Source: a virus. From it: DNA of 39,910 bases. Below, one piece after another: positions 29,856-31,209 of this stretch (position 1 is its first letter; each line of letters begins with the position of its first letter). Location of the stretch: UHGV virus genome UHGV-1354558; one strand, written 5' to 3'. The position numbers and the translations under genes were made by a program. The notes under the pieces are model-generated. The model had not been told where the DNA came from and ran no database searches. It was given only the letters and a program-made list of their open reading frames with translations.

Positions 29856-29897
29856 AGAATACTGTAGGTATTTTATTGTGTAAATACCCAAGGTATT
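29856..29897 (-). promoter_or_regulatory. PL promoter with two operator sites (OL)
   Basis: Operators AATACTGTAGGTATT (29858-29872) and AATACCCAAGGTATT (29883-29897) fit AATACY-N3-RGTATT. Minus-strand -35 TTTACA and -10 TATTCT with a 17-nt spacer overlap them. Confidence 0.55.
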
Positions 29898-30029
29898 TAT
29901 TTTTGGTGAAATAATGATAAGCAAATGAATACAAAGGATATTTATTTTTTTCGGTGTCTGCTTGTTCAGTGCTTTTTATGCGGGATATGTGAAGTGGATC
30001 CCGATAGCTATTGCTGCCGGGATTATGAG

Positions 30030-30398
30030 TTAGTCAGCGAAGGTTAAGACGAGAATTACCTTAATGATGTCTGCTACAACAGACACGGTCATAGATAAAC
30101 CAAAGACGATCCAAGCCATAGAGATGTCTTCACTACCATCGTATAGAGTTCCGTAATCACTGGTGTAAGGCGTAAATGTCGCGCCTTGATACAATAGGTA
30201 TAAGCTTGATCCATAGAGGATAAATGCAGATATCCCTTGTATTGCCATGATCACCAGAATCATGAAACGAGCTGATCTATGCGCCCAAGCCTGGCTTATT
30301 TTTTCTGATAGAGATTTCGCAATAAAAGCATGCGCTAAGCCGTAAATTGTTGAGATTGCCAACATCCCCAAAAAGCTTGCTATAGCGGTTCCAACCAT
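30030..30398 (-). CDS. small polytopic membrane protein co-transcribed with cI (rex-like position)
   Basis: ATG at 30398 with AAGGGG 6 nt upstream, 18 nt after the cI stop. 122 aa with about four hydrophobic helices; a lower-GC tract follows. Confidence 0.6.
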   Translation of the reverse strand: MVGTAIASFLGMLAISTIYGLAHAFIAKSLSEKISQAWAHRSARFMILVIMAIQGISAFILYGSSLYLLYQGATFTPYTSDYGTLYDGSEDISMAWIVFGLSMTVSVVADIIKVILVLTFAD

Positions 30399-30415
30399 AA
30401 TCGCCCCTTGCGTGA

Positions 30416-31132
30416 TCAAACCAGCCTTAGTTTTGTCTCAATTGCAACGCCTATAATCTTGCAGTTTCCATTGATTGGCACGAGAGGCCATGCAGGATTA
30501 AGTCCCTTGAGGTATTTATTTCCGCCGTCGATTATCAGCTTCTTGAATGTTGCTTCGTTAGAGTCAGAAAGTTTTGCTATGACCAAGCTGCCGTTGATCG
30601 CCTCCCTTCCGGTATCGAAAAGAACGAATGTTCCCTCTGGAATGCTTAACCCAACCGGTGCCGTCATTGAATCACCTTCCACTTTAAGCCAGAACGCATT
30701 ACCTTGAATATGCGCGTCAGACTCAAGCCAAACATCTATGTCTTTAATGGTGTATGGTTCGCATGCTTCACACCACGAGCCAGCCTGGATACTGCTTAAC
30801 ACCGGATACCTCTTTCCTGCTCTGTATTCCCCTGCATACCTTACGTTGGCATCGCTCTTAAGGCTTTCTGCCTGTTCTGCAACCTTGGCAGCAATTGACT
30901 GGCTAAAATCAGCAATTGAGACTTGCAACAGTCGTGCAAAACCAGATGCAACCTCAACGTTTAGCGCGTTTCTGCCATTAAGATAATGCCCTACCGCTCC
31001 TTGGGTGATACCCAGTTCATCAGCGATTGAGTATTGGGTTATCCCCAATTCTTTCTTTTTTGACTCATACAAAGCCTTAAGCCGCTTAGCGTCTTCGAGC
31101 TGTTCTGTCGTCAGTGATTTTTTATTTTCCAT
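30416..31132 (-). CDS. cI: CI-type repressor (HTH plus S24 autopeptidase)
   Basis: 238 aa: MENKKSLTTEQLEDAKRLKALYESKKKELGITQ... closely parallels lambda CI, with the C-terminal LexA-like domain (WLKVEGDSMTAP...FKKL). Apparently leaderless start. Confidence 0.9.
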   Translation of the reverse strand: MENKKSLTTEQLEDAKRLKALYESKKKELGITQYSIADELGITQGAVGHYLNGRNALNVEVASGFARLLQVSIADFSQSIAAKVAEQAESLKSDANVRYAGEYRAGKRYPVLSSIQAGSWCEACEPYTIKDIDVWLESDAHIQGNAFWLKVEGDSMTAPVGLSIPEGTFVLFDTGREAINGSLVIAKLSDSNEATFKKLIIDGGNKYLKGLNPAWPLVPINGNCKIIGVAIETKLRLV

Positions 31133-31143
31133 AGCTTAATTCT

Positions 31144-31209
31144 AATAGCTAAGGTACTTAAACTAAAAATACCCTGAGTATTGATTGCTTTGAATACCTG
31201 TAGTATTCT
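31144..31209. promoter_or_regulatory. OR operators with PR (rightward) and PRM (leftward)
   Basis: Operator-like sites at 31168-31182 (AATACCCTGAGTATT) and 31193-31207 (AATACCTGTAGTATT), plus a degenerate third at 31144-31158. PR -35 TTGATT and -10 TATTCT; TAGAAT sits 7 nt before the cI ATG on the minus strand. Confidence 0.6.

Follow-up and report, generated by a model that had tools for sequence, protein, structure and literature searches.

What reads the palindromes that flank the cI gene in the UHGV virus genome UHGV-1354558, and which immunity do they confer? We analyzed this 39,910-nt stretch of viral DNA as a whole (hereafter, the window). The original prediction, made from the sequence alone, had placed an immunity region with lambdoid operators between positions 29856 and 31209. 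The locus is very probably the immunity region of a P22-like temperate coliphage with the specificity of phage HK620, and it carries six 17-bp predicted operators for CI and Cro dimers. The HK620 record has listed five of the six sites since 2001, and the region is already known. New here are a probable re-assignment of the third leftward operator, OL3, with a conserved 45-bp architecture, and a possible split at position 1 of the operator half-site between sister groups of CI/Cro proteins.

The motif AATACYNNNRGTATT (AATACY-N3-RGTATT) occurs in four exact copies in the window, at 29858-29872, 29883-29897, 31168-31182 and 31193-31207. Two of them lie over the leftward promoter PL and two over the rightward promoter PR, and no exact match was present in any of 100 dinucleotide-preserving shuffles of the window, supporting the claim of a self-consistent operator set at the leftward (OL) and rightward (OR) operator regions. 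When up to two mismatches are allowed, 11 matches are found against 3.96 expected. Six of these fall in the two short intergenic stretches that flank cI and the adjacent hkaS-like open reading frame (ORF), adding 29928-29942 and 31144-31158 to the exact copies; the remaining five are scattered, near the chance rate. A palindromic 17-mer matrix, trained on the four exact sites and run over all 39,894 positions of the window, returned these sites at ranks 1-4 (21.4-24.3 bits), a third OL site at 29927-29943 at rank 5 (11.0 bits) and OR3, at 31143-31159, at rank 9 (7.3 bits). The base flanking the 15-mer is a purine in seven of the eight strong half-sites; the half-site of the 17-mer reads R-A-A-T-A-C-Y, and the palindrome is centred on a base pair. 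The six predicted operators are:

29857-29873, OL1, GAATACTGTAGGTATTT: exact motif, 21.8 bits; identical to OL1 of the HK620 GenBank record; shares 5 nt with the PL -10 element.
29882-29898, OL2, AAATACCCAAGGTATTT: perfect 17-bp palindrome with the exact motif and the top score, 24.3 bits; identical to HK620 OL2; shares 3 nt with the PL -35 element.
29927-29943, probable OL3, GAATACAAAGGATATTT: two mismatches; 45 bp centre-to-centre from OL2.
31143-31159, OR3, TAATAGCTAAGGTACTT: weak, two mismatches; identical to HK620 OR3; relatives have a site at an equal offset from cI.
31167-31183, OR2, AAATACCCTGAGTATTG: exact motif; identical to HK620 OR2; its final 3 nt open the PR -35 element.
31192-31208, OR1, GAATACCTGTAGTATTC: exact motif; identical to HK620 OR1; shares 5 nt with the PR -10 element.

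Three of the sites, centred at 31151, 31175 and 31200, occupy the 106-bp gap between cI and cro. Where four to five 15-bp sites had been proposed, the four strong ones stand, but the total is six, two of them weak, and the unit is 17 bp, with a flanking base that is mostly a purine and covaries with the type of CI/Cro protein across relatives.

The genes on either side of OR encode a lambda-type pair of regulators:

30416-31132, minus strand: cI repressor, 238 amino acids, with Pfam domains HTH_3 and Peptidase_S24.
31239-31433, plus strand: cro, 64 amino acids, lambda-Cro fold family, recognition helix QCAISK.

CI matches HTH_3 (E=8e-10) and Peptidase_S24 (E=5e-24) and aligns over 230 residues with the lambda repressor 3BDN (E=2.9e-52). 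Its recognition helix is TQGAVGHYLNG. Ala117-Gly118 aligns with the lambda cleavage site, and the residues of the catalytic dyad, Ser155 in GDSM and Lys197/198 in FKKL, are present. Cro matches PF09048 (E=3.6e-26; 91.3 bits against a cut-off of 32.7) and the lambda Cro structures 1COP/5CRO (E=4.7e-19). The two genes are divergent and enclose a short tripartite operator region, as in a lambda-type switch.

The specificity is that of HK620 (GenBank AF335538; Clark et al. 2001, J Mol Biol 311:657). A megablast comparison with phage records gave 98.5-99% identity between 29767-31800 and the immunity regions of HK620, mEpX2, HK630 and HK140; phages HZ41 and HF4s and the Stx2c phages Stx2_EH1904 and Stx2_5044 also share the HK620 immunity, and two Stx2c-converting phages cover the entire 29400-31800 query. 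For CI, 16 records show 99.6-100% identity, and for Cro 16 show 100%; the CI of the window is 99.6% identical to HK620 CI and 100% to mEpX2 CI, and its Cro is 100% identical to HK620 Cro. The HK620 record annotates OL1, OL2, OL3, OR1, OR2, OR3, pL, pR, tIMM, nutL, nutR and pRE, and its OL1, OL2, OR1-3, pL, pR, nutL and nutR recur in the window as exact strings, at coordinates that were derived independently. Over 2 kb the window differs from HK620 by 30 substitutions or indels and from mEpX2 by 20, none of which falls within any of the six sites. Comparison of the half-sites with known immunity groups, suggested in the original prediction as a check, thus yields a match to the HK620 type, all six sites being identical in HK620 and mEpX2. 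Because proteins and sites are identical, homoimmunity with HK620 is predicted. Of 5,426 complete Escherichia coli genomes, 146 (~2.7%) carry the region with an identity of at least 95%.

The operators are embedded in predicted promoters whose layout is that of phage lambda:

29849-29884, minus strand: PL, -35 TTTACA (29884-29879), 17-nt spacer, -10 TATTCT (29861-29856), predicted +1 at 29849; called by the promoter scan.
31181-31216, plus strand: PR, -35 TTGATT (31181-31186), 17-nt spacer, -10 TATTCT (31204-31209), predicted +1 at 31216.
31139-31144, minus strand: predicted -10 element of PRM, TAGAAT, 6 nt upstream of the cI ATG and covering the first 2 nt of OR3.

The PL and PR strings are identical to the pL and pR features of HK620, and the geometry of PR is as in lambda. 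Both sides are alike: O1 overlaps the predicted -10 element by 5 nt and O2 the -35 element by 3 nt, which bears out the proposed overlap of operators with -35 and -10 elements. TATTCT recurs in the two promoters because the hexamer arises from the promoter-proximal O1 half-site, GTATTC, followed by T. The original prediction was right that the two promoters share this element but overstated its oddity: TATTCT agrees with TATAAT at four of six positions and keeps the critical A2 and T6, and is therefore just mildly unusual. The PL transcript is predicted to begin with ATCAGCAGGACGC, as in lambda, and the PL start is therefore placed at 29849.

We set the lambda immunity region with its annotated operators (NC_001416) against the window. 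The gap between the cI ATG and OR3, the PRM -10 element, the overlap of the PR -35 element with OR2 and the predicted PL and PR starts all agree within 0-1 nt. Ten nucleotides lie between the cI ATG and the first base of OR3 in both phages. The PRM -10 element, 6 nt from the ATG and reaching 2 nt into OR3, is TAGATT in lambda and TAGAAT in the window; the PR -35 element, composed of the final 3 nt of OR2 and the next 3 nt, is TTGACT in lambda and TTGATT in the window. The OR sites are spaced centre-to-centre at 23/24 bp in lambda and 24/25 bp in the window. The gap and the overlap confirm that the operators occupy the positions expected of lambdoid ones. The likeness extends to the homologous CI and Cro proteins, tripartite OR and OL, 17-bp operators centred on a base pair, cII/PRE, N and nut sites in a like arrangement, and a cI start with the geometry of a predicted leaderless mRNA. 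The lambda switch architecture is retained and the recognition sequence alone is changed: the half-site is RAATACY in the window and TATCACC in lambda, with differences at positions 1, 3 and 4; the CI helix is TQGAVGHYLNG rather than GQSGVGALFNG, and the Cro helix QCAISK rather than QSAINK. In spacing and gene content, OL and OR are ~1.3 kb apart in the window and ~2.4 kb in lambda, a single small ORF stands where lambda has rexA/rexB, and OL3 and OL2 are probably 45 bp apart, as against 20 bp in lambda.

The same features can be followed through relatives. We collected six phages (CI 58-71% identical) and 33 prophage loci from more than 15 genera of Enterobacterales (CI 50-76% identical); the analyzed set comprises 37 loci and 203 kb, the window included, and thus 36 diverged relatives. 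The prophage loci were retrieved by peptide patterns that include GHYLNGRN, so the C-terminal part of the recognition helix is shared by construction, and the question that the set can address is "same helix, same operator?". With up to one mismatch, 81 sites lie at OR, at offsets near -74, -50 and -26 from the cI start, 63 in clusters downstream of cI (OL) and nine elsewhere, against a total of 2.4 in shuffled loci; since the loci are phylogenetically non-independent, these counts are not probabilities. The cI start is conserved as well. On the cI strand the window reads TAGAAT-TAAGCT-ATG where lambda has TAGATT-TAACGT-ATG, without a Shine-Dalgarno sequence. In 30 of the 37 loci the cI ATG is preceded, at a distance of 5-7 nt, by a hexamer of the TAnnAT type (TAGAAT, TACAAT, TAAAAT, TACTAT and similar); a Shine-Dalgarno-like sequence is absent before cI in 35, and the intervening 6 nt are free to vary. 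This pattern supports a leaderless cI mRNA from the predicted PRM, in keeping with the leaderless transcript originally proposed.

The one operator on which the window and the HK620 record disagree is OL3. The annotated position corresponds to the following stretch:

29904-29920: equivalent of the OL3 annotated in HK620, TGGTGAAATAATGATAA; lies in the OL3-OL2 spacer and is unsupported as an operator.

On a rival reading, OL3 lies at 29904-29920, as in the record, or OL has just two functional operators, and 29927-29943 is a chance half-match or a part of tIMM, which maps to 29917-29947 and encloses our candidate. The annotated equivalent, however, ranks 26,154 among the 39,894 positions, at -35 bits, and is not constant among homoimmune phages, with a single-nucleotide polymorphism at 29906 relative to HK620 and mEpX2. 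As for the tIMM equivalent, we reject it as an intrinsic terminator, because it folds at just -0.6 kcal/mol and has no U-run. The candidate itself departs from the motif at two positions, and its distance from OL2 is unlike the 20 bp of lambda; departures from the lambda operator scheme do occur in some lambdoid phages, for example 933W, according to PMC3317979, and this too speaks for the rival reading. Against this, 29927-29943 holds rank 5 in the window, and a site with at most two mismatches recurs exactly 45 bp from OL2 in seven diverged loci (L003, L015, L016, L017, L035, L036 and L040), nine loci having a 21-bp spacing instead. Among the eight loci with 45-bp spacing, mean pairwise identity is 78% at the half-site positions of OL3, 32% in its centre triplet and 54% in the 28-nt spacer between OL3 and OL2. 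Half-sites that are kept around a centre that is free to vary are the signature of an operator, and 29927-29943 is therefore rated the likelier OL3. We consider this placement, judged from sequence conservation, fairly probable, and a two-operator OL or an OL3 at the GenBank position unlikely, although it retains appreciable weight.

In the spacer between OL3 and OL2 a TA is invariant and a G nearly so; in eight diverged loci they form a -10-like TAGNAT/TATCAT on the minus strand (~29919-29914), within the stretch that is annotated as OL3 in HK620. Reading the listed sequences by eye, we found no convincing sigma-70 -35 partner for the TAGNAT, and therefore claim no promoter in the spacer.

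Could the palindromes instead be AT-rich repeats associated with promoters, or sites of another protein, such as a host factor or the hkaS-like product? The half-site is AT-rich, and overlap with promoter hexamers alone would conserve part of the sequence. Yet all loci that retain the CI recognition helix have the motif at OR and OL, even those without a gene between cI and OL, and the motif is altered where the helix is altered. In three controls that have a similar CI C-terminal domain but another helix (L005, L007 and L008), no AATAC motif was found at OR. Cronobacter phage ENT39118 (CI SQSAVAQFLAG) has lambda-like operators, TATCACCG/AATAACCG; Enterobacter phage ENT1 and Erwinia phage Midgardsormr38 (CI TKGAVSHWLNA) have sites of the type ATACAA-N2-TGTAT; and in phage Fostie (CI TQSAVGHYLNG, Cro QIAISK) the operators are shifted to TAGTAC/TACTAC. 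OR3 and OL3, moreover, keep the motif without overlapping PR or PL hexamers.

Position 1 of the 17-mer, which lies outside the search pattern, covaries with the type of CI and Cro. Seven loci with Cro IQCAISK and CI TQY, the window included, supply 70 half-sites, of which 83% have a purine there; among the 140 half-sites of the 13 loci with Cro HQTAISK and CI TQQ, 86% have a pyrimidine. Prophages of Serratia, Tatumella, Pantoea and Yersinia (e.g. Serratia phage vB_SspS_OS31) have the same CI and Cro recognition helices as the window, whereas the sister group with Cro HQTAISK, e.g. Erwinia phage vB_EhrS_49, has a pyrimidine at position 1 in place of the purine of the window. Like the window, both groups carry three copies of AATACY-N3-RGTATT at OR, with unchanged offsets from cI, and two to three copies at OL, with the same PRM geometry, although their CI proteins are just 50-76% identical to that of the window and their spacers and centre triplets differ. 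Most members of the HQTAISK group have OL3 at 21 bp from OL2. The two groups may be heteroimmune despite their common AATAC core.

The register of the operators also fits the recognition code of Cro. In the code of Hall, Lefevre & Cordes (2005), as summarised in PMC6649833, Gln at H1 pairs with A+2, Ala at H3 with A+5 and Lys at H6 with C+6. The Q-C-A-I-S-K helix of the window Cro and the half-site R1 A2 A3 T4 A5 C6 Y7 obey this code in the 17-bp register; the 15-mer register would break it at +5. In lambda Cro, according to the same source, Ser H2 and Asn make the contacts to half-site positions 3 and 4; the window Cro has Cys and Ser at these places, and positions 3 and 4 differ most from the lambda half-site.

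Taken together, the pattern is the one expected of CI/Cro operators, and an account by promoters only or by a third factor does not predict it; such an account appears highly improbable. That the motif consists of mere conserved promoter hexamers is rejected, because OR3 and OL3 are free of PR and PL hexamers and the motif changes with the recognition helix. Lambda-family CI and Cro, and a motif that tracks their recognition helices across the 36 diverged relatives, speak for the CI/Cro switch put forward in the original prediction.

Five points weigh against assigning the locus to a CI/Cro switch of the HK620 type. The searchable literature yielded genome-comparison papers only, and no binding, footprinting or transcript-mapping study of HK620-type CI/Cro. 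PR remains below the threshold of a generic promoter scan (8/12 consensus matches), which called PL alone. Neither the promoter/terminator scan nor folding gave a convincing intrinsic terminator for the cI-hkaS transcript. The candidate OL3 has two mismatches and an atypical 45-bp spacing, and conflicts with the HK620 GenBank annotation. Finally, the 33 prophage loci are helix-selected and not phylogenetically independent.

Concerning terminators, the lone terminator-like match of the scan lies inside cI on the wrong strand, and the sole stable hairpin between the hkaS-like ORF and OL (-15 kcal/mol, within ~29990-30025, minus strand) has no U-run. Searches of the whole window against Rfam at gathering thresholds gave no matches.

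The neighbouring genes and sites are:

30030-30398, minus strand: hkaS-like ORF, 122 amino acids, downstream of cI in the rexAB position; matches phrog_6534.
29025-29324, minus strand: N antiterminator, first gene of the PL operon; weak Pfam N_peptide match.
29769-29810, minus strand: nutL, boxA and boxB hairpin; identical to HK620 nutL.
31440-31485, plus strand: nutR, boxA CGCTCTTTAA and a boxB hairpin within TTCCCGCCGAAATGCGGGAAT; identical to HK620 nutR.
31542-31820, plus strand: cII, Pfam Phage_CII (E=3.8e-42), annotated in mEpX2.

The hkaS-like ORF has no Pfam or PADLOC match. In HK620, the hkaS gene likewise lies between cI and OL. The ORF is presumably co-transcribed with cI, and its place between cI and OL, that of rexA/rexB, makes it likely to be expressed from the prophage. 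Other relatives have different cargo genes, or none, in this position. A candidate CII box for PRE, TTGC-N6-TTGC, is found on the minus strand at 31575-31588. The boxB hairpins of nutL and nutR are GC-rich, of the type CCCGC-CGAAAT-GCGGG, and the boxA is CGCTCTTTAA. The stretch 29850-29950, ahead of the leftward N gene, is AT-rich. N has an arginine-rich N-terminus, DNARNRRRARRQAQRE; its first 64 amino acids are 97% identical to HK620 N, after which the sequences diverge.

Between N and nutL, unlike HK620, the window contains ~370 bp (29400-29767) without a megablast match in that phage. This segment is also unmatched in mEpX2, HK630 and HK140, whose alignment starts at 29767; it is present in Stx2_EH1904, Stx2_5044 and vB_EcoP-611R6, and the small ORFs in it have no PHROG match. 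Since it lies inside the N leader, it could affect expression of the PL operon. On a larger scale the window is a mosaic P22-like genome. Positions 1-25000, the virion half, are closest to phages Dewey, APC_JM3.2 and IME10 and nearer to other P22-like phages than to HK620; positions 25001-39910, the early region, are closest to HK620 and mEpX2.

By homology with lambda, CI in a lysogen would occupy OR1/OR2 and OL1/OL2, over the -10 and -35 elements of PR and PL, and thereby switch early transcription off. CI bound at OR2 would adjoin the weak -35 element of PRM and keep up its own synthesis, from a leaderless mRNA predicted to begin with the A of the cI ATG. The weak OR3, over the PRM -10 element, may serve negative autoregulation or let Cro shut PRM off. 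Prophage induction would follow from RecA-stimulated self-cleavage at the Ala-Gly of the S24 domain. Binding, the order of affinities, cooperativity, looping and transcript starts are aspects of this scheme that we infer from sequence.

Our observations on OL3 and on position 1 can be joined into one proposal: the third leftward operator of the HK620 type lies 45 bp from OL2, two helical turns beyond the GenBank OL3, across a 28-bp spacer with TAG(N)AT; this arrangement occurs in at least eight diverged enterobacterial prophages beside the 21-bp class; and a purine or pyrimidine at position 1 may split the AATAC family into two specificities. We judge the chances of the whole proposal to be evenly balanced. 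If true, it would describe a variant OL geometry that could affect CI cooperativity or OL-OR looping, or hide a second regulated promoter or protein site.

By this analysis, the OL3 and tIMM features of the HK620 reference record probably need correcting; it also provides a set of 37 loci that pairs CI and Cro helix variants with operator variants and is usable for studies of the specificity code. The region would determine which superinfecting phages a lysogen resists, namely HK620, mEpX2, HK630, HK140, some Stx2c-converting phages and prophages of E. coli. In this immunity group a different DNA-recognition specificity is combined with a lambda switch architecture that is preserved almost to the nucleotide. 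The current understanding of such switches is left unchallenged.

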